Shown: positions 1,383 through 52,956, counted from the first letter of the stretch. The stretch: 64,000 nt of DNA from an uncultured Dehalococcoidia bacterium (GCA_964602845.1 CAZRSW010000010.1:1076-65075), one strand, 5' to 3'. Notes: generated by a model not told the origin, from the letters alone. Made by a program: numbers and translations.

Positions 1383-2081
1383 ATGGTGAAAATGTCTGGT
1401 AGGAAGATTTTAGTGATCACACCACATCCCGATGATGCGGAAAGCGGTGCGGGAGGAACCATTGCCAAATGGTCGGAAGAGGGTGCCACCGTAGTGTTAA
1501 TCGTCTGTACCAATGGCAACAAGGGTACAGATGATCGTTCCAAAAGCTCTTCTGAGATTGCGGAAATTCGTCGTAGAGAACAAGCTGACGCCGCAAAGAT
1601 TTTGGGTATCACGAACGTAATATTTCTTGATCATGATGATCAGGAGTTGCATGATAATGATGCGTTTAGACAGGAATTGGTTCGTGAGATAAGAACTCAT
1701 CGTCCTGATGTAGTTGTTACGATAGATCCGGAGAGGAGGTGGATCAGGCACAGAGACCATTTTGTAACAGGTAGAGTTGCCTTGGATGCTGTTTTCCCTT
1801 ACGCAAGGGACCATCTAGCTTATCCCCTCATGCTAGATGATGGCTTAGAGCCCCATAAAGTTAAGGAGGTCTATCTTTGGGGGAGTGACGAGCCTGATGT
1901 TTTTATTGATGTGGATGGTACCTTCGATAAGAAAGTTGACGCGCTATATTGCCATGTAAGTCAGATGAGTACTTCACGTGAAGATGGGTTGAAGCGTTTG
2001 AGAGATAGGTTCTCAGAATATGGTTGGAAAGTTAACGCCTCAGTAGCGGAACCATTCAAACTACTTCGATTGGGGAGATAA
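1383..2081 (+). CDS. PIG-L/LmbE family deacetylase
   Basis: 232-aa ORF with ILVITPHPDDAESGAGGTIAKW at the N-terminus and a downstream HRDH motif. Confidence 0.85.
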   Translation: MVKMSGRKILVITPHPDDAESGAGGTIAKWSEEGATVVLIVCTNGNKGTDDRSKSSSEIAEIRRREQADAAKILGITNVIFLDHDDQELHDNDAFRQELVREIRTHRPDVVVTIDPERRWIRHRDHFVTGRVALDAVFPYARDHLAYPLMLDDGLEPHKVKEVYLWGSDEPDVFIDVDGTFDKKVDALYCHVSQMSTSREDGLKRLRDRFSEYGWKVNASVAEPFKLLRLGR

Positions 2082-7730: not shown

Positions 7731-10499
7731 ATGTCTACTTCCCCGTTCCCCAATTTTGATCCAAATACCTTGAGTGCAATGATGCGCGGGCGAGTCAAAT
7801 GGATTGTGTTGGCAGTGGCAGTGGTTGGGTTGTTTTTTCTCGTTTCTTTTCTCAGATCCGTCTATGCGGATTTACTTTGGTTTAATGAACTTGGGTATAA
7901 GGGTGTTTATCAAAAGGTCATAGTTGTCAGGGTGGTACTGTTCGTCGTTGGTGCTTTAATAGCTGGCGTTGTTTTTGCTGTTAACCTCTATTTCGCACAG
8001 AGGGCGATTGGGGGCCTAAGTAAGCTTTCAGCAGATGGGATTTCTTTGATCGCGAGGCCCTTGATATTAAGCTTTACGATTATTGCTATTTTGGTGATCT
8101 CTTTAATTTTCGGAGTATTGTTATCAACCCATTGGGAATTATTCCTGAGATTTACCAATTCAACATCGTTTGGCATCCTTGATCCGGTATATGACAAGGA
8201 TGTAGGCTTTTATATTTTTCAGCTTCCTCTTTATTCTGTCATTCGTTCGTGGTTATTGATTTTAAGTTTGGCGTCGCTCGTGTCGGTCGGGGTGCTCGCG
8301 TTTGTTAATTTCACTGCTCGGGGAGAAAGGTTTGTAATTCCATCCGGTCTTAAGATACATATGATTGCGGTGGGATCTGTTGTAGTACTGGTAGCTGCTG
8401 CTGGTCAGATCATAGGGATGTATCATCTGGTTCACTCGGATGATGGAGTTGTTTATGGTGCAACATATGCAGACGTAAATGCAAAGAAAATGGCCTACTT
8501 AGTGACAGCAGTACTTGGCGTTTTTGTTGCTATTGTGATGCTAGTAGGTGCATTCGTCGATAGGATCAGGATTGTTGTCGGGGTCGTAGGCTTGTGGGTC
8601 GCACTCATCATCATTTTGGGTTCTGCCTGGCCTAGTGTAATCCAAGAACTGTCAGTAAACCCCAACGAATACGTTAAGGAAAAAGAATTTATTGAAGATA
8701 ATATGCGCTTTACCAGTATTGGTTATGGGCTCGATCAAGTGTCAGAATCATTCTATCAGGCGGAAGGGAAGATCACGGCAAAACTTGTTGAGGAAAACAA
8801 GAAGACCGTCGAGAATATCAGACTATGGGATCATCGACCATTGACCGATGTTTATAGGCAAATTCAGTTGATCCGTCCATATTATGAATTTATAGATGCT
8901 GATGTTGATAGATACACGATTAATGGTGATTATCGACAGGTTATGCTTGCGGCCCGGGAGGTTGCTCCTGAAAAACTAGCAGATGAGGCCCAGACCTGGG
9001 TGAACAGGAAGCTCTTTTACACTCATGGGATTGGTCTAGCGATGAGTCCAGTGACGGAGTTCACCCAAGAAGGAAGACCGGAGTTCTTCGCCAAGGATAT
9101 CCCCGCAGATGGGCAGATACCGATTATGGATCCTGATTCGGACGGTTCCCCCGATTTAATCGTTGAAAATCCGAGGATCTATTATGGAGAATCAGTAGAG
9201 AACTATGTAATCGTTAATACCAACACTGCGGAGCTGGATTATCAAACTGGTGCCGGGGATCTGATTAAGGCTCATTATCAGGGTTCGGGAGGTGTGCAAG
9301 TAGGATCATTCTTGCGTAAATTGGTCTACGCATGGCAAATGAGAGATGTGAATATACTGATAAGTGACGAATTACGAGAAGATAGCAGAATTCAGTATCG
9401 AAGAAATATCCAAGAGAGGGTCAAAACCATAGCGCCATACTTGTCATTAGATAAGGATCCTTATGCGGTTGTGGCTGATGGACAGGTGTTTTGGGTACAA
9501 GACGCTTATGCGACATCCGACTCATTTCCGTATTCGGACCCTTTTGCATCTGAGGAGACTGGCGAGAGCTTCAACTATATAAGAAATAGCGTAAAAATAA
9601 TAATTAATGCATATAACGGTAACGTTGATTTTTATATATGGGATAAGGGAGACCCAATCGCGGCTACGTACTCTAAAATATTTCCAGATCTCTATCTGGA
9701 TGGTGACTCCATGCCTGAATCAATCAAAGCTCATATACGTTATCCACAAGGGTACTTTCAAACACAGGCAGAGAAATATGTGAGATATCACATGAAGGAT
9801 TCTCAGAACTTTTATGGGAACGAAGATTTGTGGTCGTTTCCCAACGAGAAATTTGGCCAAGGCGAAACTCTTCAGCGTGTCAAGCCATATTATGTGATGA
9901 TGAGGTTACCTGGCGAATATAAAGAGGAATTTGTATTGCTTCTCCCTTATACACCAGTTGGTAGGCCAAACATGGTAGGATGGCTCGCGGCTAGGAGCGA
10001 CGGTGATAATTACGGTAAACTTGTGGCTTTTAATTTTCCTAAAGATCGGCAAGTTGATGGGCCGGAGCAAGTTGAAGCTAGAATTGATAATGATCAGGAT
10101 ATATCAGCGTGGTTCACGTTGAGGTGTGCCGAGGGTTCTACTTGTATAAGGGGCAATTTGTTGGTGATACCCATTGGGGACAGTATATTGTACGCAGAAC
10201 CCGTTTATATTCAGGCAGAAGGAGTCAGTTTTCCTGAACTGAAGAAAGTTATATTAGCGTCATCTGATACTGTAGTTATGGAAGATTCTCTGGCCCAAGC
10301 GATATTCTCGCTGAGTGGCTCGGATAGTTTGTCCGTTAAATCACCTCCGGAACAAATTGGGGGAATCAAAGACACCCATAAAGTTACTGATGGGGAAGAG
10401 AGCCCGTTGAAATCCGGAATTGAAAATTTGGAAGATACAATCCAGCGACTGAAAAAAGCCTTAGATTCTTTGGAAGATGCTCTGGAAGGCATTAAATGA
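7731..10499 (+). CDS. UPF0182 family membrane protein
   Basis: 922-aa ORF with about 7 N-terminal TM helices, an LLWFNELGY motif, a large soluble domain and a C-terminal coiled-coil-like tail. This matches the architecture of UPF0182 proteins. Confidence 0.8.
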   Translation: MSTSPFPNFDPNTLSAMMRGRVKWIVLAVAVVGLFFLVSFLRSVYADLLWFNELGYKGVYQKVIVVRVVLFVVGALIAGVVFAVNLYFAQRAIGGLSKLSADGISLIARPLILSFTIIAILVISLIFGVLLSTHWELFLRFTNSTSFGILDPVYDKDVGFYIFQLPLYSVIRSWLLILSLASLVSVGVLAFVNFTARGERFVIPSGLKIHMIAVGSVVVLVAAAGQIIGMYHLVHSDDGVVYGATYADVNAKKMAYLVTAVLGVFVAIVMLVGAFVDRIRIVVGVVGLWVALIIILGSAWPSVIQELSVNPNEYVKEKEFIEDNMRFTSIGYGLDQVSESFYQAEGKITAKLVEENKKTVENIRLWDHRPLTDVYRQIQLIRPYYEFIDADVDRYTINGDYRQVMLAAREVAPEKLADEAQTWVNRKLFYTHGIGLAMSPVTEFTQEGRPEFFAKDIPADGQIPIMDPDSDGSPDLIVENPRIYYGESVENYVIVNTNTAELDYQTGAGDLIKAHYQGSGGVQVGSFLRKLVYAWQMRDVNILISDELREDSRIQYRRNIQERVKTIAPYLSLDKDPYAVVADGQVFWVQDAYATSDSFPYSDPFASEETGESFNYIRNSVKIIINAYNGNVDFYIWDKGDPIAATYSKIFPDLYLDGDSMPESIKAHIRYPQGYFQTQAEKYVRYHMKDSQNFYGNEDLWSFPNEKFGQGETLQRVKPYYVMMRLPGEYKEEFVLLLPYTPVGRPNMVGWLAARSDGDNYGKLVAFNFPKDRQVDGPEQVEARIDNDQDISAWFTLRCAEGSTCIRGNLLVIPIGDSILYAEPVYIQAEGVSFPELKKVILASSDTVVMEDSLAQAIFSLSGSDSLSVKSPPEQIGGIKDTHKVTDGEESPLKSGIENLEDTIQRLKKALDSLEDALEGIK

Positions 10500-35926: not shown

Positions 35927-37063
35927 ATGTTATGTCTGCCTTTAACCGCGGACGAGGAGAGTAAATTAACATTGGCTGAAATAAAGGTGGCGATAATTGG
36001 GGTAGGAAACTGTGCATCGTCTCTAGTTCAAGGGGTGACCAAATATGCAGATGCTACTCCTGAAGACAATATTCCAGGATTGATGCATCCTGTTTTAGGT
36101 GAATACGGTATAGGGGATATTAAGTTTGTGGCGGCCTTTGACGTGGATGCAAGTAAAGTTGGGAAAGACATTTCGGAAGCCATATTTCAGGAGCCGAATA
36201 ATACACTGAAATTTCAAGATGTACCGGATCTAGGGGTTAAAGTGCAAAGAGGTATGACTCATGATGGGATTGGTCGGTATACCTCTGATCTGATCAAAAA
36301 AGCTGAAGGTGGTACGGATGATGTTGCGGCTATCCTGAAAGAGAGAGAAGTTGATGTAGTGATAAATTATTTGCCGGTGGGATCAGAGGAAGCAACGAAA
36401 TGGTATGCGGAACAGGTCCTGAAAGCAGGGTGTGGATTTGTGAATTGCATACCGGTGTTCATTGCTAGTGGCGAGAATGATTATTGGCAGAATAGGTTTA
36501 GGGATGCAGGCTCTCCCATAATAGGGGACGATATAAAAAGCCAGGTTGGGGCAACGATTACCCATCGGGTTCTTACTAGACTATTCATGGATCGGGGAGT
36601 GGAATTAGAGCGTACCTACCAGTTGAATTTTGGTGGCAATACAGATTTTATGAACATGCTGGACAGAGACAGGCTGACGTCTAAAAAAATATCAAAGACA
36701 CAATCAGTAACTTCCCAGGTTGATTATGGTGTGACTGACGATAACGTTCATGTGGGTCCCAGTGATTTTGTGCCATGGTTGTCTGATAGAAAGTGGTGTT
36801 ACATACGGATGGAAGGCAAAAGCTTCGGCGATGTGCCTCTAAATTTAGAGTTAAAACTTGAAGTGTGGGACAGTCCAAATTCCGCTGGTGTAGTGATCGA
36901 TGCGGTCAGATGTGCGAAAATTGCTAAGGACCGCGGGATTAGTGGGCCTGTGACGGCGCCATCGTCCTATTTTATGAAATCCCCCCTAGTACAGTACACA
37001 GATGACGAAGCAAGAATGTTGGTTGAGGAATTTATTTCTGGTGAGGAGCATGCGCAGGGTTAG
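35927..37063 (+). CDS. ino1: inositol-3-phosphate synthase (myo-inositol-1-phosphate synthase)
   Basis: 378-aa ORF with [17 protein letters not shown] and [11 protein letters not shown] motifs. An alternative in-frame TTG start at 35972 is possible. Confidence 0.85.
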
Positions 37064-37085
37064 ACCTTGAGCTAATAATCAACTT

Positions 37086-38258
37086 GTGGTTCGAGCTCAA
37101 TTAATCACAGGCGGGGTCCCTCCACATATAATGGATCGTAATCTACATATTGGTCTTTTCTCTCCGTATGACTTTTCATCCCATGGAGGGGTTAACCAAC
37201 ATATAAAAAACCTGCAAAAACAGTTTTTGCTTCAAGGGCACTCTTGTAAAATTGTTGCTCCTTCTTCCATAGAGCATACTTCTATCGATCGGAATTTTAT
37301 TCGTATGGGCGGGGTGGTGCCTATCCGATCACGAGGATCCGTCGCAAGGATTTCATTGTCCCTCTGGCTCATGCCAAAGATTAAATCTTTGCTTGCGCAA
37401 GAGGGATTTGATGTACTGCATCTCCACGAGCCATTTGCCGGTGCAATTACCGCCAGTGCACTTTCTGTAAGCTCAGGAACTGTTCCTGTAAAAGTCGCAA
37501 CATTTCATACTTCCAATGGCACTAACTTGTACAAGCTGGGCTTTGCTAAACTTGCTGCGCCATACTTCAGAAAACTCGATGGGAGAATAGCAGTGTCCCC
37601 TTCTGCTAGGGATTTTATAGCTAGGCACTTATATTCAGAATTCGAGATTATCCCAAACGGTATTGACCTTGAGGAATATGACATAGCTGAACCTGCCAAA
37701 GAATTGATGGATGGTAAATTGAATATCCTGTTTGTCGGCAGATTTGAGCAGAGGAAAGGTTTGCGTTATTTGATCTCGGCATATTGCAATTTACGGAGGA
37801 GCTTGGATGGAGTCAGGTTGATAATAGCTGGATCGGGAGAATTGGACCCTGATTCAGCCAGGATAATTGCCGAAAGAGGTTCTGAAGACATCTTGTTGAA
37901 GGTAGGGATATCAGACGAATATAAGGCTAGTTTATTTCGCAGCGCAGATATATTTTGTGCACCATCCACAGGAAATGAAAGTTTTGGAATCGTTTTATTG
38001 GAAGCTATGGCAACGAGCACGACTATAGTAGCTAGCAACATCAATGGTTATTCTTCGTTAATCATTAACGAGGAAGATGGATTCCTATGCCCTCCCAAGG
38101 ATGAAAATGCCTTGACTGAGATTCTTATACGCTTGGTAGGTGATAAAGCAATGAGGGAAAGGGTGGGCCAGAGTGGTCACAAGAAAGCCAGAGACTTTAG
38201 TTGGGATATCGTATCCAGAAAGGTTCTCGACTATTATAGTTTAGTTGGAAGGTTTTAA
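37086..38258 (+). CDS. GT4 glycosyltransferase, PimA-like
   Basis: 390-aa ORF with a GTG start (alternative ATG at 37131). It has an IGLFSPYDFSSHGGVNQH N-terminus and a C-terminal E-x7-E region (ESFGIVLLEAMA). Confidence 0.8.
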   Translation: MVRAQLITGGVPPHIMDRNLHIGLFSPYDFSSHGGVNQHIKNLQKQFLLQGHSCKIVAPSSIEHTSIDRNFIRMGGVVPIRSRGSVARISLSLWLMPKIKSLLAQEGFDVLHLHEPFAGAITASALSVSSGTVPVKVATFHTSNGTNLYKLGFAKLAAPYFRKLDGRIAVSPSARDFIARHLYSEFEIIPNGIDLEEYDIAEPAKELMDGKLNILFVGRFEQRKGLRYLISAYCNLRRSLDGVRLIIAGSGELDPDSARIIAERGSEDILLKVGISDEYKASLFRSADIFCAPSTGNESFGIVLLEAMATSTTIVASNINGYSSLIINEEDGFLCPPKDENALTEILIRLVGDKAMRERVGQSGHKKARDFSWDIVSRKVLDYYSLVGRF

Positions 38259-43579: not shown

Positions 43580-44092
43580 ATGCGAGACCTATTGTGTGTT
43601 AATCTCATAGTAGAGGTGGAAGAAGCTAACGAGATATTGTCCGAGAGGCAGGTTAAGATCGCAGAAAGAGTTTTGTCGCATTGTGCTGTAGATCACGGAT
43701 ACAGTAACATCGTTATTGTGAATGAGGGTACCATTCGACAGCTTAACATGGATCATAGGGGACTGGATGAAGTAACTGACGTGTTGGCCTTTTCTATGGA
43801 TCACGAAGGTTATTTCTACGGAGAAGACACGGAAGGGCGTTACGAGAGAAGTCATCAGGAATTCGTATTACCCCCAGGGGCTCATCTACATCTGGGAGAA
43901 GTTGTCATTTGTTTTTCGCAGGCTATGAAACAAGCTACGTCATTTCATATATCTGTGGAGGATGAAATAAACAAGTTGGTAGCTCATGGCTTTCTACATT
44001 TGATGGGTTACGATCACGTTGAGCCAGAGGAGGAACGGGAAATGAGTCTCCTACAAGAGAAGATTGTCGCGGAGGTAATTGACTTTGAGTGA
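43580..44092 (+). CDS. ybeY: rRNA maturation RNase YbeY
   Basis: 170-aa ORF with the HGFLHLMGYDH zinc motif. Confidence 0.9.
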   Translation: MRDLLCVNLIVEVEEANEILSERQVKIAERVLSHCAVDHGYSNIVIVNEGTIRQLNMDHRGLDEVTDVLAFSMDHEGYFYGEDTEGRYERSHQEFVLPPGAHLHLGEVVICFSQAMKQATSFHISVEDEINKLVAHGFLHLMGYDHVEPEEEREMSLLQEKIVAEVIDFE

Positions 44093-45752
44093 GGTGTTGT
44101 ACCGTAAATGGAGACCGAACCATTTAACGGATGTCGTTGGCCAGGAACATGTTACTAGGATCCTAGAAGCGGCGATTTCCACCGGACGGATAGCTCATGC
44201 CTATCTCTTTTGTGGTCCTCGGGGCACCGGTAAGACAAGTACGGCGCGTATTCTTGCGAAGGCACTAAATTGTATGTCGCCTATTGAGGGTGATCCGGAT
44301 AATGAATGTGCGGTGTGCCTTGCAATCAATGAAGGTCGATCATTAGATCTAGTGGAGATCGATGGTGCCAGCAATCGTAGGATCAACGATATTCGGGATT
44401 TATCGGAGAAGATCCATTATGGGCCAACTGAAGGGAAATACAAAGTCTATATCATTGACGAAGTACATATGCTTACAACGGAGGCGTTTAATGCCCTGTT
44501 GAAAACTCTGGAAGAGCCCCCTGATCATGCAATAATTATACTAGCGACCACGGACATTCATAAGGTGCCCTTGACGATAATATCACGGTGTCAACGCTTT
44601 GACTTCCGTCGAATACCCATCGCCGCAATCAAAGAAAAGTTGACGCGCCTTTGTGTATCAGAGGGTGTCAAGGTTGATCCGGAGGCTTTAGAGTTCATAG
44701 CGAGGCGATCTGGAGGTAGTTTGAGAGATTCGGAGAATCTTTTGGATCAAGCTATTGTTACATTTGAAGAGCCGATAACTTTGAGCGATTTGAATGACCT
44801 GTTTAATGTTGTTGATCAATCTTTACCATTACAGTTATTGGAATCTATTTCTAAAAAAGACGTGATAAATAGTGTCGAAGTCTTGGGTAGGTTCGTTGAA
44901 AACGGTGGCGATATCAGGCAGATGCATGGAGCTCTTATTGATCTACTTCGCACTCTGGTGTTGATCAAATCGGATGCAATAAATAGTGATGAGGATGGTG
45001 AAGAGGTAGATTCTAGGTTGCGCCTCATGGCTTCCGGATTCGACCTCGTTGAGGTTTTTGGACTTATGAAGACTTTGGTTAATCTGGAGTTTAACAACTC
45101 ACTTTATTCGGACATTATTTTAGAAATGGCTATTATTGAGACTTGTACCGTTAAAGCTAGTGCGGAATCGTTTGGTTCGAATAAAGCTGAGACACAAACA
45201 AGTAAGGTAAAAGATGTAGCACCGGTGTCACGCCGGGTTGCTGGGCCGCCGGACAGGTTGTCAGTTGCCCCTAGTAATATAACAAGTGCTACTTCTTCCA
45301 AAGAACGTGTAAAACAAAAAGTTGATAGTGCTGGTGGTATTATCGATCGGGAACCGATTTCTAAGGATGATGCGTCCGTGGAATCGTCCGATCTAGATAT
45401 ACATTGGAATCGATTGCTTCAATCTCTTCGTCAAACGGGCAACCGGTTTAACATCGGAGCCCTTTTACGTGGGTGTCATGAAAGAAAATTGGAAGAGGAT
45501 AGGGTGTTTTTCATGTTCCGGTATGGGTCTCATGTTGAAAGGATGAAAAGTGAATTATCGGACCCAAATGTTAAGAAAGGTCTTGAAGATGCGTTAGAGT
45601 CGGTTTTGGGAAAGAAGATGGGCGTTGAAATTAAATTGGCAGACGATGACTCTGTAAGAAGGTCAAAGCCAGTATCCCAAAGAAGTCATCTTGTCAGAGC
45701 GGCACAGGCAATGGGGGCTCGTATAATTCAAGAAAAGGAGAAGTCCAGGTGA
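44079..45752 (+). CDS. dnaX: DNA polymerase III subunit gamma/tau
   Basis: 557-aa ORF with LYRKWRP, Walker A GPRGTGKTS, a Zn module CxxC, and SRCQRF. The start is more likely the TTG at 44085 (GGAGG 9 nt upstream). Confidence 0.9.
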   Translation: MTLSEVLYRKWRPNHLTDVVGQEHVTRILEAAISTGRIAHAYLFCGPRGTGKTSTARILAKALNCMSPIEGDPDNECAVCLAINEGRSLDLVEIDGASNRRINDIRDLSEKIHYGPTEGKYKVYIIDEVHMLTTEAFNALLKTLEEPPDHAIIILATTDIHKVPLTIISRCQRFDFRRIPIAAIKEKLTRLCVSEGVKVDPEALEFIARRSGGSLRDSENLLDQAIVTFEEPITLSDLNDLFNVVDQSLPLQLLESISKKDVINSVEVLGRFVENGGDIRQMHGALIDLLRTLVLIKSDAINSDEDGEEVDSRLRLMASGFDLVEVFGLMKTLVNLEFNNSLYSDIILEMAIIETCTVKASAESFGSNKAETQTSKVKDVAPVSRRVAGPPDRLSVAPSNITSATSSKERVKQKVDSAGGIIDREPISKDDASVESSDLDIHWNRLLQSLRQTGNRFNIGALLRGCHERKLEEDRVFFMFRYGSHVERMKSELSDPNVKKGLEDALESVLGKKMGVEIKLADDDSVRRSKPVSQRSHLVRAAQAMGARIIQEKEKSR

Positions 45753-46054
45753 TGAACAAAAATATGTTGAAACAAGCTCAGCAACTCCAGAAGCAGATGG
45801 CTAAAGTGCAAGATGAAATAGAAACCACTACGGTGGAGGCATCCTCCGGGGGGGGCGCAGTGAAAGTTGTTGTATTAGGTAAGATGGTTGTTCAATCTAT
45901 ACATATAGAGGCCGCCGCAGTGGATCCAGAAGATGTCGAATTATTAGAGGAAATGGTGTTGACTGCGATAAATGATGGCCTAAGTAAAGCTCAAGAACTG
46001 GCATCTTCTAAGATGAATGCCCTAACGGGCGGCTTAAATTTACCTGGGTTTTAG
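45749..46054 (+). CDS. ybaB: YbaB/EbfC family nucleoid-associated protein
   Basis: 101-aa ORF with MLKQAQQLQKQM and SGGGAVKV motifs, in the canonical dnaX-ybaB-recR context. Confidence 0.9.
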   Translation: MMNKNMLKQAQQLQKQMAKVQDEIETTTVEASSGGGAVKVVVLGKMVVQSIHIEAAAVDPEDVELLEEMVLTAINDGLSKAQELASSKMNALTGGLNLPGF

Positions 46055-46112
46055 AGTAGAACCACTGAAATTTCGAAATGCTGATGTTAAAGAGTAGGAG
46101 TGGCTTTGTACG

Positions 46113-46724
46113 GTGTCTTTAGAAAATGCTTCAGAAACCCCTCAAGTAAAAAGGTTAGTTGAGGAATTTAGTCGACTCCCTGGAATAGGTCCAAAAACAG
46201 CACAGAGGTTGACGTATTATCTGATCCGATCGTCTGTGGAGCAATCAGAAAGTTTGGCTTCCGCTGTTTTATCAATCAAGAAATCAATTGTTCTTTGCAC
46301 TGTATGTTTCCACATCACTGAGAAAGATCCTTGTGGGATATGTGCAGAAGAAACCAGAGATTCTGGTCGTATATGCGTTGTTGAGGAACCACTAGATGTT
46401 ATCGCATTGGAGAGGACTGGGAGTTTCGACGGTTTATACCATGTTTTGCATGGGGCGATTTCTCCGATTAATGGGATTGGGCCGGCTGATTTGCAGATAA
46501 ATTCACTAATTGAACGGTTAACGGATGGTTCTGTGAAGGAGGTGATCCTTGCGACCAACCCAAATTTAGAGGGTGAAGCAACATCCATGTATATCAACAA
46601 CTTAATTTCTGGGATGGATATACTAGTCACTCGTCCAGCAAGAGGCCTGCCAGTGGGAGGTGATTTGGAATATGCGGACGAAGCTACGCTTGGGAGAGCC
46701 CTAGAAGGCCGACAGACCTTTTGA
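46113..46724 (+). CDS. recR: recombination protein RecR
   Basis: 203-aa ORF with LPGIGPKTAQRL (HhH), a C4 zinc finger (CxxC...CxxC) and a Toprim domain. Confidence 0.95.
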   Translation: MSLENASETPQVKRLVEEFSRLPGIGPKTAQRLTYYLIRSSVEQSESLASAVLSIKKSIVLCTVCFHITEKDPCGICAEETRDSGRICVVEEPLDVIALERTGSFDGLYHVLHGAISPINGIGPADLQINSLIERLTDGSVKEVILATNPNLEGEATSMYINNLISGMDILVTRPARGLPVGGDLEYADEATLGRALEGRQTF

Positions 46725-46731
46725 ATCAGAA

Positions 46732-47535
46732 ATGAATGAGGTTATATATTTAACCGATGCCTACACTATGAATAACAGAAATTATCAAACTAAAGCGATA
46801 GTGCTGAAACAGCGCCCTATGGGAGAGGCTAATCGGTTGCTTACTCTTTACACGGAAACTTCCGGAAAAATTTCCGCGATAGCACGAGGTTCCCGGAAGC
46901 CTGGCAGTAAACTTGGAGGTAATCTTGAATTGCTTAACTTGGTAGAAGTTTCTCTTGGACGAGGCAGGAATCTTGACCATATCAACGAGTGCTCCGTAAT
47001 TGACAGGTATAGGTATGTGAGGGAGGATCTGGCCAAGATTGCTCATGGGCTTTATCTGGCGGAATTGTGTGAGGTATTTGGTGAAGAGAGGTCTTCAAAT
47101 CCGGGGTTATTTAGATTGCTAAAGGACACGTTGGTTCGTTTAAATGGGGAGAATTTTTCGGATCTAGTTTTGCGAGAGTTTGAGATGCGATTATTACTTC
47201 ATTGCGGATTTTATCCGGAGTTAAACGAATGTGTCGAATGTAGGGATAAATTACAGCCAAAGATGTGTGCATTCGTCCCGTCGTTTGGTGGTGCTATATG
47301 CTCTGGTTGCGAGAGTGAGATTGGAGAATTTAAGGTAAAACTTTCCGTTCCAGGTATGAAGTTGCTGAGACATGTCCAAAGAAGTAATGGTAGTCAAAGT
47401 GAGGTCGGTGTAATACGGGTGCCACAGGAAGTTTCGAATGAAATTCAGAATGTGTTGAAGACGTATTTGGAATTCATAATGGAGAAAAAGATAAAATCGG
47501 CAACATTCTTAGACTTGGTGTCTAATGGGAACTAG
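46732..47535 (+). CDS. recO: DNA repair protein RecO
   Basis: 267-aa ORF with an OB-fold N-terminus (TKAIVLKQRPMGEANRLLTLYT) and a C-terminal CxxC...CxxC. The real start is perhaps the ATG at 46768. Confidence 0.85.
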   Translation: MNEVIYLTDAYTMNNRNYQTKAIVLKQRPMGEANRLLTLYTETSGKISAIARGSRKPGSKLGGNLELLNLVEVSLGRGRNLDHINECSVIDRYRYVREDLAKIAHGLYLAELCEVFGEERSSNPGLFRLLKDTLVRLNGENFSDLVLREFEMRLLLHCGFYPELNECVECRDKLQPKMCAFVPSFGGAICSGCESEIGEFKVKLSVPGMKLLRHVQRSNGSQSEVGVIRVPQEVSNEIQNVLKTYLEFIMEKKIKSATFLDLVSNGN

Positions 47536-47677
47536 GTCGCCATAACTAAAATCCAGTTCCCTCGTCCAAAATCTATGATGCAGGTTCAAGGTGCCTAGAG
47601 ACATATTAGAGCATGGGATTTGTTGCTTTTTTACTTAGAACGTTAGAATAGAATGGCGATTTGGTACTAACATGATT

Positions 47678-47753
47678 GCCCCTATAGCTCAGGAGGATAG
47701 AGCACCGGTTTCCTAAACCGGGTGCACAGGTTCGAGTCCTGTTAGGGGCACCA
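47678..47753 (+). tRNA. tRNA-Arg (anticodon CCU)
   Basis: Manual cloverleaf: GCCCCUA/UAGGGGC acceptor, CCGGU-UUCCUAA-ACCGG anticodon arm, ACAGG-UUCGAGU-CCUGU T arm, encoded CCA. Confidence 0.9.
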
Positions 47754-47855
47754 CTCTTTTTATGCACGGAATCACCCTGTTTACCGAATAGCCTTATCCG
47801 AGGAAAATAAATTTCTAAGTGCGGTGAATCTGATATAGGAATTGGGAGCAAAGCC

Positions 47856-48548
47856 ATGATACACAAAGACTTTAATTGCGAAATATATTTTATTCGGCAC
47901 GGGGAATCGGAATCGAACGCTACCCCTGGCCTTGCAGCCGGTATTAATTTTGATGCACCACTGACTAAACTAGGACATGAGCAAGCAAAATTATTAGGGA
48001 AAAGATTTAAGAATGAAAAGATTGATTTTGACAAGGTGTTTAGCTCAACTTTGACTAGAGCTGTTCAAACAACGGAAAACATTTTTATGGGTATGGATAA
48101 TCCAACGAATAGGTTTCAGAAGGTTCCAGCGATAATAGAACAACAAATTCCCGGGTGGCGTGGTGTTCCAACTGAGGAAGCTTATACCAACGATACAATG
48201 ACTTACATCATGGAAAAAGGTAAGGATTTTGTAGGTCCGGATGGGGAAAGCATAAGAGAAGTACAAAAACGAGCGACGAATTGGCTTGAAGATGAACTGA
48301 TTTATAATCGAAAACTCTGTAGCAGCCCTCAATCATTGAAGGTAGCGATCATAGGTCACGGGAATACTATGAGGTCGATATTTCATTATATTATGGGTTT
48401 TGACCAAAGGTTGATATATAAAATCGGTGTAGATAACACCTCGATTTCTAGATTTATATTCAACAGTCAGGGATGGTCTGTTGTTTGTTTAAATGATAAC
48501 TCGCATTTAAAAACAAACCCTTCCGGAACGTTTGAAACTAGAAGCTGA
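47856..48548 (+). CDS. histidine phosphatase family protein (phosphoglycerate mutase-like)
   Basis: 230-aa ORF with the IYFIRHGESESN catalytic RHG motif and a later GHGNTMR motif. Confidence 0.8.
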   Translation: MIHKDFNCEIYFIRHGESESNATPGLAAGINFDAPLTKLGHEQAKLLGKRFKNEKIDFDKVFSSTLTRAVQTTENIFMGMDNPTNRFQKVPAIIEQQIPGWRGVPTEEAYTNDTMTYIMEKGKDFVGPDGESIREVQKRATNWLEDELIYNRKLCSSPQSLKVAIIGHGNTMRSIFHYIMGFDQRLIYKIGVDNTSISRFIFNSQGWSVVCLNDNSHLKTNPSGTFETRS

Positions 48549-48595: not shown

Positions 48596-49939
48596 ATGAA
48601 GATCCAAAATACAGGTTTAAAAGTAAATAGTATAGAAATTACCGATCTGAGAGTCCCCACTTCGGATACTTTGTTAGGGTCAGATCCATTTCATAAAAAA
48701 ATAAATTACTCCTGCGTATACACTCAAATAAAACTCACTAATGGTACGGAAGGTAATTCTGTCTGTTTTACAGCGGGAGCAGGCAATGACTGGATTGCTT
48801 ATGGAGTTAAAGATATAGCTAAGTTATTGGAAAGTTATTCTTTCGATGAGTTTATCCACAATCCAGGATCAATTTATAAATTCATCAATGATCATCATCA
48901 ATTAAGGTGGTTGGCAGATGGAGTTAACAGAATGGCCATGGGGTGCATTATTAACTCCTTGTGGGATGCTTGGGCAAAAATTGAAGAAAAGCCAATGTGG
49001 AAACTGTTGGTTGATCTAGAGCCTGAAAAAGTTATTGATTCTATAGACTGGAGGTATCTAGAAGATGCTTTGTCTAAGAGTGAAGCAATAGAAATTTTAA
49101 AGGAACGCGAAGCAGATCATGAAGATCTAGAGCTTGCATTGAAAAATAAAGGTCCAAAGGCCTATTCTACGGCTGGTTGGATAGGTCTTACAGATGAAGA
49201 AATTATTAAAACAGTGAAGGAAATGCAATCAAATGGTTTTGATTGCTTCAAGATGAAGGTTGGGCAGAGCCTTGAAGATGACAAGGAAAGATTGAGGTTT
49301 ATAAGGGAAGTAATCGGAAGTGATTCCAAATTGATGTTGGATTGTAACCAAGTATGGGGAGTGAACGAGGCTATAGACTATATGGATGAGCTCGCTGAAT
49401 TCAATCCTCTCTGGATAGAAGAGCCAACCGCAAGAGATGATGTTCAGGGTCATTTAAAAATAGCAAAGTCTCTAGAAAGTCTTAATATCAAGGTAGCAAC
49501 AGGGGAACAAGTTCCTTCGCCAGTCATTTTTAAACAATTACTCCGCTCTGGAGCTATAGGTTATTGTCAGATTGATGCTAGTCGTCTTGGGGGGGTTAAT
49601 GATGTGATGGCGGTAATTTTATTAGCCAAAAAATACAAGATTCCTGTCTGTCCACATGGAGGTGGAATTGGTCTTTGCAATATGATTGTTCATTATGCAA
49701 TCTGGGATCAAATAAAAGTTGCAAGTCATTCGAATGATCAAGTTGTGGAATATTTAGAGTTTTTACAGGATGAGGTCTTTAAGTTTCCCGTGCGTGTAAA
49801 GGATGGTAACTATGTAACTCCAGAAGTGCCTGGGTGGGGTTTGGAGATGCAAGAAGAATTTTTTGATTCCCACATTTATCCTACCGGAACAATATGGAAA
49901 GAAAGGGTGGAATCCGGAAGCATAACTTTTCTTCCATAA
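48596..49939 (+). CDS. enolase-superfamily dehydratase (mandelate racemase subgroup, L-fuconate dehydratase-like)
   Basis: 447-aa ORF with FKMKVG, LMLDCNQVW, IEEPT..DD and CQID motifs. The gene is visibly AT-rich. Confidence 0.8.
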   Translation: MKIQNTGLKVNSIEITDLRVPTSDTLLGSDPFHKKINYSCVYTQIKLTNGTEGNSVCFTAGAGNDWIAYGVKDIAKLLESYSFDEFIHNPGSIYKFINDHHQLRWLADGVNRMAMGCIINSLWDAWAKIEEKPMWKLLVDLEPEKVIDSIDWRYLEDALSKSEAIEILKEREADHEDLELALKNKGPKAYSTAGWIGLTDEEIIKTVKEMQSNGFDCFKMKVGQSLEDDKERLRFIREVIGSDSKLMLDCNQVWGVNEAIDYMDELAEFNPLWIEEPTARDDVQGHLKIAKSLESLNIKVATGEQVPSPVIFKQLLRSGAIGYCQIDASRLGGVNDVMAVILLAKKYKIPVCPHGGGIGLCNMIVHYAIWDQIKVASHSNDQVVEYLEFLQDEVFKFPVRVKDGNYVTPEVPGWGLEMQEEFFDSHIYPTGTIWKERVESGSITFLP

Positions 49940-50052
49940 TAGTAAATATAGATAGAAATCGGTTTGGGCTCATCAGAATTAGAGGACATAGCAATGAACT
50001 CAACGGTTAATAGATGAAAGATATTGATTTTGATCAGTGGCTAGAGGCCTAT
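49784..50052 (+). repeat. copy A of a diverged ~270-bp duplication (enolase 3' end, spacer, first 13 codons of apt)
   Basis: Alignable by eye to 51460-51726. A 27-nt identical run ATGAAAGATATTGATTTTGATCAGTGG occurs in both copies. Confidence 0.75.
50014..50052 (+). pseudogene. 5' fragment of apt (13 codons, MKDIDFDQWLEAY)
   Basis: About 92% identical to the first 39 nt of the intact apt at 51688. It then runs into tRNA-derived sequence, and the chimeric reading frame stops at 50083-50085. Confidence 0.75.
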
Positions 50053-50096
50053 TTCCTAAACCGGGTGCGCAGGTTCGAGTCCTAATAGGAGCACCA
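50052..50096 (+). repeat. partial copy of tRNA-Arg(CCU) 3' half (anticodon loop to CCA); att-like direct repeat
   Basis: 41 of 45 nt are identical to 47709-47753. The 5' half of the tRNA is absent. Confidence 0.8.
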
Positions 50097-50215
50097 CTGC
50101 CTCTCAGCATGAATACGGGTGACGATGTTGTTTAAATGATCAATTCAGGGTGCTTCTTTTAGGGTTTGATAGCAGTCCAAGTAATTAATGGTTCTTCAAG
50201 GAAGCAGAGGTCTCG

Positions 50216-50758
50216 TTATCCTTGTTTTTCTAATACTACCGAATTTTCCATTTGCTTTAGGGGGACTTGCCAATATCTTTGCAACAATCGATTCGTTTGT
50301 TTCTTTGTATGGCGTACAAAATCATTTTTCATATAGAACGTAACTGCCCATGTCGCATCTTGCCATGTGCCAACAAGCAACCTAGAGTTCCTATTCATTT
50401 TAAATAAATGTTGTAACAACGCTTTTCCTATACCTATTCCTTGGTAATTAGACAGTGTATAAGCATGCCTTATTAAAGTGACATCTTCTACTTCTTGGAA
50501 TCCCATTACCCCGACTAGTATATTGTCTTTATCGTAGCCGAATATACGAACCCCATTGTCAAATTCATGAATCATCTCTTGCTCTCGCATGTATGGTTCT
50601 TTCCAGCAACTGTCCGGGATGACCCCTTTATATTTTGAAGCAGCATTGTTAATCACGTAGATGATTTGATGAATGTCTTCTTTTGTATATTCAGATATCA
50701 TGAAAACTAAGTATAGGTTTTGAGAATTGATTTTTCCATTAGAATTACTATTTGACAA
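50216..50758 (-). CDS. GNAT family N-acetyltransferase
   Basis: 180-aa ORF with a TTG start. The likely real start is the ATG at 50701 (MISEYTKEDI). It has an acetyl-CoA motif region (YQGIGIGKALLQH). Confidence 0.8.
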   Translation of the reverse strand: MSNSNSNGKINSQNLYLVFMISEYTKEDIHQIIYVINNAASKYKGVIPDSCWKEPYMREQEMIHEFDNGVRIFGYDKDNILVGVMGFQEVEDVTLIRHAYTLSNYQGIGIGKALLQHLFKMNRNSRLLVGTWQDATWAVTFYMKNDFVRHTKKQTNRLLQRYWQVPLKQMENSVVLEKQG

Positions 50759-51011
50759 CCAATCGCATCACAAAATAAATGTGATGAATACCCGAGGGCT
50801 TGTTGGAGAACAAATTGTGGGAAGGGAAACCATTTAGATAGCCCTCCAAGCAACGATTCGGAGGATTATTCGTTTCAGGTGAAATCAACCATGCTGCATC
50901 TAAAGCTTGTGCTAGTACACCCAAGACTAATCGTTCTAGCTCAGGTGAGGAACGAGTGGTGTAGGGTTTTGTTAGAATACTAGCCTATCTATAAGTTTTG
51001 AGGAGGTAAAA

Positions 51012-51380
51012 ATGGCAGGAATAAATAGCAACGACTTTTCGTCCCCTGACGAAGTGATGGCATTTGATAAGGCAGAGATGAAGGTGGCTAATCTGGCTAA
51101 TATCAAAGTTGCTCGTGGTGTAATACAGCCAGGATGGAGTTGGTCTAGTTGTATGAAACCTGTGGTTGGCACTGAAAGTTGTGCGACTAGACACGTTGGT
51201 GTTGTTTTTAGCGGCTGCATGGTTGCTACTCACGACGACGGTACAGAAATGAAGCTGTGTGAAGGGGACGCCTATGTAATAGAACCCGGGCATGATGCAC
51301 GAGTTGAAGGAGACGAGGCTGTAATTATCTACGAGTTTAATACTGGGGCGATCGAACACTTTGCTGAATACTCCGAATAA
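51012..51380 (+). CDS. cupin domain protein
   Basis: 122-aa ORF with a strong GAGGAGG RBS and a small beta-barrel-type sequence (GDAYVIEPGHDARVEGDEAVIIYEF). Confidence 0.65.
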   Translation: MAGINSNDFSSPDEVMAFDKAEMKVANLANIKVARGVIQPGWSWSSCMKPVVGTESCATRHVGVVFSGCMVATHDDGTEMKLCEGDAYVIEPGHDARVEGDEAVIIYEFNTGAIEHFAEYSE

Positions 51381-51459
51381 ATATATGAGATTGAAGTGCC
51401 TAAGATATAGGGAGCAAATTTGAAGGCTATTCCATTTTTATATTCCTTATCCAAAGGAG

Positions 51460-51613
51460 GTTCCTATGCGTGTACAGAATGACAAATATGCGACACTATG
51501 ATCACAGAGAAAGCGTTTGTGCGATGAATGAGGAGTTTTGTGTCCCCATATTTATCCTAGAGCAAGAGTATGAAAAAACAGTGGAGCCTATAACCATAAC
51601 TTTTCCATCCTAA
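51460..51613 (+). pseudogene. 3'-terminal remnant of an enolase-superfamily gene (paralogous to 48596..49939)
   Basis: VPMRVQNDKYATL matches FPVRVKDGNYVTP, and ...ITFPS* matches ...ITFLP* of the intact gene. The remnant is broken by stops and frameshifts. Confidence 0.65.
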
Positions 51614-51726
51614 TAGTAGATATAAATAGAAACATGTTTGGTCACCTCCGGATTAAAGGTGACGACAATTAATTGACGGGTTAACGGATGAAAGATATTG
51701 ATTTTGATCAGTGGATAGGAGCCTAT
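51460..51726 (+). repeat. copy B of the diverged duplication (enolase remnant, spacer, start of intact apt)
   Basis: See copy A at 49784-50052. Confidence 0.75.
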
Positions 51727-52209
51727 CCTGATTTTCCTAAACCAGGAATCTTATTTAGAGACATAAGCCCTTTGTTGGCAAGTCCAGTAGGTATGAAGCT
51801 GGCGAAAGAAAAATTATGTGAAGTAATTCTGTCATGGGACGTTGACTTGATAGCTGGAATAGATGCGAGAGGATTTTTGTTTTCCACTCTAATTGCGGAT
51901 CAACTTGGGCTTGGCTCTTTAATGATCAGAAAGCGAGGTAAGCTTCCGGGTGAATTAATTGACCAACACTATGAGCTCGAATATGGAAAAACCGAACTTG
52001 CGATGCAGAAAACCCAGGATCTAAGGGAGGGGCGCATCGTCATAGTTGATGATCTTCTGGCAACAGGAGGAACTATCAAGTGTGCTAAAGATTTAATAGA
52101 ATCGCAAGGGGCCCGAGTCGTCGGATGTGCCTTCATTGTCGAACTTCTTTCGTTGGATGGTAATAAACAAATTGATTGTCCTGTATTTAGTCTGAAAAAG
52201 TATGACTAG
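51688..52209 (+). CDS. apt: adenine phosphoribosyltransferase
   Basis: 173-aa ORF with FPKPGILFRDISPLL and the PRPP motif IVIVDDLLATGGT. Confidence 0.9.
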   Translation: MKDIDFDQWIGAYPDFPKPGILFRDISPLLASPVGMKLAKEKLCEVILSWDVDLIAGIDARGFLFSTLIADQLGLGSLMIRKRGKLPGELIDQHYELEYGKTELAMQKTQDLREGRIVIVDDLLATGGTIKCAKDLIESQGARVVGCAFIVELLSLDGNKQIDCPVFSLKKYD

Positions 52210-52756
52210 TTTTTCAAAAAACAATACTTTAGTAGTTGTTGCTCTCGAAGATGAGTTGCCAAGAAAATTGGTAAAAGATTGGAGAGTAATATACACGGGT
52301 ATAGGGAAAGTAAATGCGGTGATTGAAACTAGCATCGCTGTAGAAGTACAAAAGCCAGATTTCATTGTAAATTTTGGTACTGCTGGCTCTTCTAACGAAA
52401 ATATAACAGGACTGCATGAAGTAACTCTTTTTAAGCAAAGGGATATGGACCTTTCACCGCTGGGCTTTGATAAAGGCATAACTCCATTGGATGAAATAGC
52501 TGATATCAGCTTAGGAAGAGAAGGACTGAGTTGTGGTACGGGAGACAACTTTGTTGATGGAGATCAAGAGGTTGTAACTGACCTTTATGATATGGAGGCA
52601 TACGCCCTAGCAAAATTCTGTTTAAAAAAACATATTAATTTCTATTGTTTTAAATTTGTATCGGATCAAGCTAACGAAGACGCCCCCAAAGACTGGAAGG
52701 ACTCGGTTTCATCCGGGGCGGACGTTTTCATTGAATCTGTCCTTTTGAATGGTTGA
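52202..52756 (+). CDS. nucleoside phosphorylase family protein (MTA/SAH nucleosidase-like, short)
   Basis: 184-aa ORF overlapping apt by 8 nt. It has PNP_UDP_1-like motifs (GIGKVNA, NFGTAGS, DMEAYALA). Confidence 0.65.
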   Translation: MTSFSKNNTLVVVALEDELPRKLVKDWRVIYTGIGKVNAVIETSIAVEVQKPDFIVNFGTAGSSNENITGLHEVTLFKQRDMDLSPLGFDKGITPLDEIADISLGREGLSCGTGDNFVDGDQEVVTDLYDMEAYALAKFCLKKHINFYCFKFVSDQANEDAPKDWKDSVSSGADVFIESVLLNG

Positions 52757-52956
52757 TGAATCCGAATCAAAAGTATGAGAAGTTCACTATGAGCTATTTA
52801 ATCTAACGTGGCACAACGAAATATGACCACAGGTAGGTTTGGTGCAATTACCAGACCACGTGCCGAGGGTCGAGATATTTTAGCAGTACTAATTTCTTCT
52901 GATTAAAATATCAATGTGATATAAGTCCGGATGTTATGGGATCGTAAGCGACATAC

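Follow-up and report, generated by a model that had tools for sequence, protein, structure and literature searches.

What leaves the beginning of one gene fused to the end of another, with both parent genes intact close by? The question is raised by positions 50014-50098 of the window (the whole 64,000-nucleotide stretch of DNA analyzed here, from an uncultured marine Dehalococcoidia bacterium), where a 5' fragment of apt is joined to the 3' half of a tRNA-Arg gene. The parent genes, tRNA-Arg and apt, have the same orientation as their fragments at the junction. A first-pass annotation had recognized this chimera and read it as the footprint of an integrase. Its alignments were reproduced: positions 50014-50052 agree with the first 13 codons of apt (51688-51726) at 36 of 39 nt, and positions 50052-50096 agree with the tRNA gene (47709-47753) at 41 of 45 nt. 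A repeat finder extended the tRNA-side repeat to 47 nt (43/47 identical), ending 2 nt beyond the CCA. The chimera of apt 5' fragment and tRNA-Arg 3' half is genuine and stands in direct orientation with both parents. On the apt side the 39-nt match holds, but it is part of a repeat whose full extent is ~260 nt (~49793-50052 versus ~51468-51726), so the limit of 39 nt does not.

How do the two pieces meet? The apt fragment (50014-50052, +) comprises the start codon and 12 further codons (MKDIDFDQWLEAY); codons 1-9 are identical to those of apt, and the three differences fall in codons 10-13. Its reading frame runs on as a 23-codon ORF with a stop within the T arm of the tRNA half. The switch had been placed at a microhomology. 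A look-alike does lie near the join, but an in-register crossover was not borne out: the offset is 7 nt, and the two parents strictly share 1 nt there (one T). Intact apt reads GCCTAT-CCTGATT-TTCCTAAACCAGG, and the junction reads GCCTAT-TTCCTAAACCGGG. The 7 nt of apt CCTGATT are absent at the junction between GCCTAT and TTCCTAAACC, and the 11-nt identity sits 7 nt downstream in apt. The window contains exactly three copies of this 11-mer, TTTCCTAAACC, one within the tRNA, one at the junction and one within apt (51733); 0.03 would be expected by chance. The apt occurrence belongs to a look-alike of the anticodon loop and 3' stem (51733-51746, +), TTTCCTAAACCAGG, which encodes FPKPG and matches the tRNA at 13 of 14 positions, 11 of them contiguous. 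By direct sequence reading against the 17-bp anticodon arm of tRNA-Arg (CCGGT-TTCCTAA-ACCGG), the apt look-alike matches at 12 of 17 positions, and the 7-nt loop is identical.

Might the tRNA half itself still function? This fragment (50052-50098, +) is copy 2 of a repeat that we designate repeat A. Two of its T-stem pairs and one acceptor pair are broken, it showed no tRNA-like fold relative to shuffled sequences (z=+0.7 and +1.9), and an Rfam search with it gave no match at E<=1. The intact gene folds better than its shuffles (z=-2.8). Folding, the Rfam search and the broken stem pairs rule out a functional tRNA or tRNA-like element. The first-pass annotation had allowed that its reading would fail if the 45-mer were an independently conserved functional element; the 45-mer is absent from the three relatives L022, L024 and L025. 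We conclude that the tRNA half is a dead fragment. It matches the tRNA of a further relative, L030, at 43 of 46 nt, slightly better than it matches the resident tRNA, and T-stem position 49 is G in both the tRNA half and the L030 tRNA and A in the resident tRNA. A weak third match to the tRNA half lies at 52847-52893, 3' of the nucleosidase gene; at 62% identity it was treated as chance, which it probably is.

The gene order around the junction is recO, tRNA-Arg, a first gene block (X), the apt-tRNA fusion, a second gene block (Y), intact apt, a nucleosidase gene, and homologues of metA and metY. The intact tRNA-Arg(CCU) gene (47678-47753, +) was called by ARAGORN and matches Rfam RF00005 with 68.4 bits. 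It holds copy 1 of repeat A (47709-47755, +), which spans the last base of the anticodon stem through CCA plus 2 nt. The first block then carries a 230-aa gene of the histidine phosphatase superfamily (47856-48548, +; Pfam His_Phos_1, E=2e-37) and a 447-aa gene of the enolase superfamily (48596-49939, +; Pfam MR_MLE_C, E=3e-56), whose homologues bear the JGI name L-fuconate dehydratase. The last ~49 codons of the latter, a 74-nt spacer and apt codons 1-13 make up copy 1 of a second repeat, repeat B (49793-50052, +). After the tRNA half comes the sequence CTGCCTCTCAGCATGAATACGGGTGACG, in a spacer (50099-50215, no strand assigned) that reaches the 3' end of the first gene of the second block, a 161-aa GNAT N-acetyltransferase gene (50216-50701, - strand; Pfam Acetyltransf_10/7/1). 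The other gene of this block (51012-51380, +) encodes a 122-aa protein, weakly cupin-like by sub-threshold Cupin_2/Cupin_3 matches and without a Pfam or NCBIfam match at threshold; a single-sequence structure model of it (pLDDT 47) was not usable. Next lies a decayed, frameshifted remnant of the last ~49 enolase codons (51468-51613, +), which is 66.7% identical to 49793-49939 with indels and whose in-frame tail ...EEFCVPIFILEQEYEKTVEPITITFPS matches ...EEFFDSHIYPTGTIWKERVESGSITFLP. Together with a spacer and codons 1-13 of the functional apt, this remnant forms copy 2 of repeat B (51465-51726, +), and the two copies are 70.7% identical overall. The intact apt gene (51688-52209, +) encodes a 173-aa adenine phosphoribosyltransferase (NCBIfam NF002636, 191 bits versus a cutoff of 125; Pfam Pribosyltran).

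Counted with its ends, the first block extends from the anticodon loop through the phosphatase and enolase-family genes to apt codon 13; the second, in tandem and collinear with it, extends from the tRNA 3' half through the GNAT gene, the 122-aa gene and the enolase remnant to apt. Both blocks open with tRNA sequence (repeat A) and close with enolase 3' end, spacer and apt 5' end (repeat B). The repeats have the same order and orientation, and tRNA and apt are both intact. Since apt codon 13, at the end of the segment, abuts the anticodon loop with which the segment starts, and since both parents are intact, this is a duplication-type joint; collinear repeats at both ends are the signature of such a head-to-tail joint. 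Elsewhere in the window (1383-2081, 7731-10499 and 35927-38258) are a mycothiol-type set, comprising a PIG-L deacetylase, an inositol-1-phosphate synthase and a GT4 glycosyltransferase, and a UPF0182 protein. Mycothiol-type gene families and UPF0182 are best known from Actinobacteria.

Perhaps the assembler had simply misjoined two strain variants of the locus? The locus is strain-variable, contig ends cluster nearby, and a 909-bp contig (L007) links sequence from upstream in the first block to intact apt. The first-pass annotation had itself raised the concern of an artefact, which we tested across contigs of other samples, found by exact-protein look-up with the apt product, the 122-aa protein and the enolase-family protein. 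The 45-nt junction string, with 0-1 mismatch, is present in contigs of seven other samples: L001/L012 (SAMN05991696, 125.9 kb), L009/L013 (SAMN05991682, 125.6 kb), L002 (SAMN05991710), L014 (SAMN05991717), L015 (a k141 contig, ERZ27252554), L016 (SAMN11874521) and L021 (a JGI contig). The carriers show at least two kinds of contig naming. They are 98.9-100% identical to the window, yet they differ among themselves; since they are not identical to each other, they are independent observations. Moreover, the 11 nt shared by the parents are out of register and too short for a graph-based misjoin. With the same junction in seven other samples, two of them represented by scaffolds of ~125 kb, it is not an assembly artefact, an explanation to which we give practically no credence. 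We conclude that an old head-to-tail recombination left this junction as a genuine scar, present population-wide and fixed in the species.

Several contigs at this locus showed features of their own. Codon 10 of the apt stub (50041-50043) is CTA in the window, L009, L013, L014 and L016 and CCA in L001, L002, L012 and L015, a SNP segregating inside a dead gene stub among conspecific contigs. L007 consists of window positions 49872-50013 and 51688-52454 with zero mismatches on either side. Could it be the ancestral empty site? Other conspecific contigs, unlike L007, differ by 1-7 SNPs; hence L007 comes from the same strain as the window, and we rejected it as an empty site. It is either a deletion between the B repeats or a low-coverage misassembly, via a 28-nt stretch identical in both copies. 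In L014, positions 1-2813, which hold the flank with dnaX, ybaB, recR and recO, are only 66-70% identical to window 44000-47677, and from the first tRNA-Arg base onward the contig is 99.6% identical to the window, junction included. Either the scaffold is a chimera joined at the 76-nt tRNA, or the whole tRNA-proximal block was recently transferred between distant relatives by way of a crossover at the tRNA. Finally, five short contigs from different samples begin or end within window 51369-51439, in the gap that separates the stop codon of the 122-aa gene from the enolase remnant: L003, L004 and L006 start there, and L010 and L011 end at 51396/51397. These ends suggest a population-level structural variant or a repeat boundary at the module junction.

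We then asked which parts of this arrangement are old. A scan with apt gave a single match among species-representative genomes (GTDB), the Dehalococcoidia MAG contig L025; a RecO scan of the genome collection gave no match. Protein names, too, are in accord with a Dehalococcoidia affiliation. In L022, L024 and L025 (~80% nucleotide identity), the enolase-family gene is followed directly by intact apt, without the tRNA half, the GNAT gene or the 122-aa gene between them. Because three relatives have this order, the enolase-apt adjacency is ancestral and the 1,674 nt between the two copies of repeat B are an addition. On the other side of the locus, the intact tRNA-Arg is identical in L031 and 96.5% identical in L030 over 86 nt spanning the tRNA. 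L030 (87% nucleotide identity) has recO, tRNA-Arg and the same phosphatase gene. In L031 (81.5%), homology ends 20 nt past the tRNA, after a trailer conserved at 19 of 20 positions with the window, and unrelated sequence follows. A distant relative, L032 (10001-11604), is syntenic with the window from the inositol-1-phosphate synthase gene as far as recO. Past recO it lacks tRNA-Arg and continues with a metallo-beta-lactamase-fold gene, placing the break in synteny at the tRNA position. Since L030, L031 and L032 differ just past this position, the region after the tRNA is a variable spot.

The second block is a mosaic: the nearest relatives of its GNAT and 122-aa modules sit in other contexts. 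Relatives of the GNAT module (50222-50739), at 75-82% amino acid identity, share a different conserved context, in which MR_MLE, a 61-aa gene, GNAT and a DEAD helicase follow one another. The closest of them, L035, shares the 3' spacer up to its contig end, 42 nt past the stop codon. The 48 nt 3' of the GNAT stop, at the end of the spacer (50174-50221), are 98% identical to L035, the GNAT gene itself being ~87% identical; this stretch may represent a conserved 3' element, for example a terminator or a regulatory site. Homologues of the 122-aa module (50960-51463) occur in unrelated contexts at 84% amino acid identity, and in L017 the gene is 98% identical in amino acids (96% in nucleotides). 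Positions 338-1028 of L017 correspond at 96% to window 50966-51659, which holds the 122-aa gene, the enolase remnant and half of the spacer upstream of apt, and they lie between moaD-like and moaE-like genes, beside tRNA-Ser and miaB. Since the enolase remnant accompanies the 122-aa gene there, sequence that originally belonged to the enolase-apt locus has relocated to another site, where we saw neither a target duplication nor inverted repeats. Values of dN/dS (0.14-0.21 for the GNAT gene and 0.11-0.13 for the 122-aa gene) indicate purifying selection on both.

Was an integrase responsible, as first proposed? Genomic islands in tRNA genes are marked by a regenerated tDNA and a displaced 3' fragment, the principle behind Islander (PMC4383910). 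Measured against it, our locus has an intact tDNA (47678-47753) and a cognate 3' fragment (50052-50098), both on the + strand, and an identity block at a known sublocation, from the anticodon-loop border to CCA plus 2 nt. No tyrosine integrase is encoded in the 2.3-kb interval between tRNA and fragment, which holds only the His_Phos_1 and MR_MLE_C genes. A search for integrases, which the first-pass annotation had suggested, was run on ~62 kb of the window and found none: recombinase or transposase domains were absent from 29 ORFs of at least 150 aa in window positions 1-39 kb and from the called genes between 38.6 and 62.2 kb. The relatives offered no empty site, the tRNA being followed by the phosphatase gene in L030 and by unrelated sequence in L031; among the fetched contigs, a limited sample, none carried an intact tRNA directly before the flank that begins at 50099. 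Composition is not foreign, GC being flat at 36-43% throughout the region, which rules out a compositional island. BLAST against phages and plasmids matched only the tRNA, no IMG/VR contig contained this tRNA half, and a looser pattern matched only phage tRNA arrays; a prophage, plasmid or IMG/VR origin was rejected on these grounds. Hence the classic footprint of an integrase was not upheld: the interval contains phosphatase and enolase-family genes, with an ancestral enolase-apt adjacency, and the att model does not predict repeat B.

A less orthodox role for such an enzyme deserves consideration. A tyrosine recombinase specific for tRNA-Arg(CCU), encoded elsewhere or since lost, might have used the apt look-alike as a pseudo-att site; attB would span the anticodon stem-loop to the CCA end, and the outcome would follow from element insertion or from unequal exchange between chromosome copies. 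The extent of repeat A, from anticodon loop to CCA end, matches a described type of tRNA attB, and identity falls sharply 2 nt past the CCA, from 4 mismatches in 47 to 12 in 20. For ICEBs1, the primary site is a 17-bp stem-loop in a tRNA gene (a 5-bp inverted repeat with a 7-nt spacer), and secondary sites in protein genes have 2-12 mismatches of 17 (PMC3715440), a range that includes the apt site with its identical loop. Integrase is also on record as rearranging chromosomes at non-att sequences (PMC5495485), and the 7 nt missing here equal the typical length of a crossover region. Against this, none of the ORFs and called genes scanned across ~62 kb encodes an integrase, neither block has a mobile-element gene, and no viral contig carries this tRNA half as attP. 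A precise crossover in the shared TTCCTAA would have retained CCTGATT, which is absent. Nor would repeat B be expected; an element would have needed its own enolase remnant, spacer and apt 5' end. We regard catalysis by an integrase as distinctly unlikely. Of the two possibilities that had been offered, a pseudo-att site or illegitimate recombination, we favor the latter; a precise pseudo-att crossover does not fit a switch 7 nt off the look-alike. A narrower conjecture, that the stretch of apt encoding the conserved FPKPG motif is a secondary attachment site at which a tRNA-Arg-specific recombinase not encoded nearby stacks alternative gene blocks by apt, is a long shot. If true, an integrase would drive gene capture without leaving an element behind, in the streamlined genome of a marine Dehalococcoidia bacterium.

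Could the blocks instead have arisen from one another in a single genome? Unequal exchange between sister chromosomes, pairing the anticodon loop with apt codons 13-16, would duplicate the 2.3-kb segment; in the second copy, the GNAT and 122-aa modules would later have displaced the phosphatase gene and all but a remnant of the enolase gene. Formally, the structure is the joint of a tandem duplication whose parent genes are both intact. Unequal pairing could have occurred at the look-alike, the enolase remnant of the second block is directly explained, and no donor allele was found among the contigs of the fetched relatives. Such a duplication predicts similar divergence throughout, one copy being unconstrained. 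We observed instead that the enolase remnant plus spacer differ between blocks at 71 of 218 positions (33%), versus 7 of 86 (8%) for the apt stub plus tRNA half (Fisher p=4e-6). Site patterns of repeat B against the three relatives gave 17, 45 and 21 changes, and the second-block copy has a long branch that splits about as deep as the ~80%-identity relatives; by comparison, the tRNA half and the apt stub seem far younger. The trailer that is so well conserved between the window and L031 is also unrecognizable past the half copy, where the spacer from 50099 onward has no significant similarity to it (12 of 20 positions mismatched; local alignment p=0.97). In-situ duplication needs added replacement steps and gene conversion, and we consider it unlikely. 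Gene conversion between repeats could mimic such heterogeneity in divergence. The contrast between 33% in unconstrained sequence and 8% in tRNA and apt favors a merger of two diverged versions of the locus: divergence that follows functional constraint would be expected if the copies had diverged in separate lineages, each with a working tRNA and apt, and had been joined comparatively recently.

The explanation that we prefer, at about even confidence, is that two diverged versions of the locus were merged by one illegitimate and one homologous crossover. The blocks would represent one chromosomal region as it had diverged in two related lineages, one of which would already have exchanged the phosphatase gene and the greater part of the enolase gene for the GNAT and 122-aa genes. 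DNA with this alternative version (tRNA, GNAT gene, 122-aa gene, enolase remnant and apt) would have recombined with the resident chromosome and been added, not swapped in. On the right, a homologous crossover would have taken place within apt or past it; on the left, the incoming DNA, with its end broken in the anticodon loop, would have been joined illegitimately to resident apt at codon 13. Pairing at the look-alike probably helped the left join, with the 7 nt lost then or later. The outcome would be that the second block was added and the first kept, with tRNA and apt both functional. Because the resident tRNA survived, as did a complete apt together with its own upstream region, the event did no harm. 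The orphaned tRNA half and the apt stub would since have decayed by ~8%, aside from the 7-nt loss, and the arrangement became fixed in the species. On this reading the 83-nt feature is the novel joint of a head-to-tail recombination, and neither a functional element nor an att site with an element.

In favor of a merger are the fixed junction, the repeated ends, the ancestral enolase-apt adjacency, the absence of recombinase and transposase domains across the ~62 kb scanned and a look-alike 7 nt from the breakpoint, and also a tRNA half nearer to the L030 tRNA, a mosaic second block and cargo genes under purifying selection. Several points stand against it. The donor arrangement (intact tRNA-Arg, the spacer from 50099 onward, GNAT gene) was absent among the fetched contigs of RecO and GNAT relatives, a limited sample in which the nearest GNAT contig, L035, ends 42 nt past the stop codon. 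The 7-nt offset obliges us to assume a later 7-nt deletion or untidy end processing. Finally, the boundaries of repeat A also resemble those of an att identity block.

By whichever route, the event gained two small genes beside apt, and no integrase or mobile element was found at work. A direct repeat of a tRNA 3' half, the signature used in island mapping, can thus arise or persist without an integrase; hence island finders, and readers too, should demand an integrase and an empty site as well. In this uncultured ocean bacterium, a flexible tRNA-adjacent region acquired two selected genes when a second version of the locus was added alongside the first, not in its place. The locus also provides a dated example of the speed at which an orphan tRNA and gene stubs decay. 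It is otherwise an ordinary, if well-documented, rearrangement scar.

How does this scar compare with known systems? As in tRNA-gene islands (PMC4383910), an intact tRNA is followed downstream by its cognate 3' fragment in direct orientation. Unlike in those islands, the interval lacks an integrase or mobility gene and its content, a phosphatase gene and an enolase gene next to apt, is ancestral chromosome; the fragment is fused to a protein-gene stub, and a second, unrelated repeat brackets the neighboring block. As at the secondary sites of ICEBs1 (PMC3715440), the look-alike lies in a protein gene and differs from the anticodon arm at 5 of 17 positions. Unlike with ICEBs1, there is no element and no integrase here, and the crossover is out of register with the look-alike. 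Tandem-duplication novel joints form at short repeats, and our joint resembles them in linking a segment's end to its start, in having intact parents and in the collinearity of its repeats; unlike in such joints, the copies differ in gene content and their divergence is non-uniform. The proposed mechanism follows the pattern of homology-facilitated illegitimate recombination, which reportedly accompanies DNA uptake in Acinetobacter and Streptococcus pneumoniae; for our organism an uptake route is putative. In both cases one end of the added DNA is homologous (here apt), the other is joined non-homologously beside a short look-alike, and foreign genes are gained beside the anchor. Unlike in that system, the join at our locus is 7 nt off the best microhomology, and the event's donor, route of DNA uptake and direction are all inferred.
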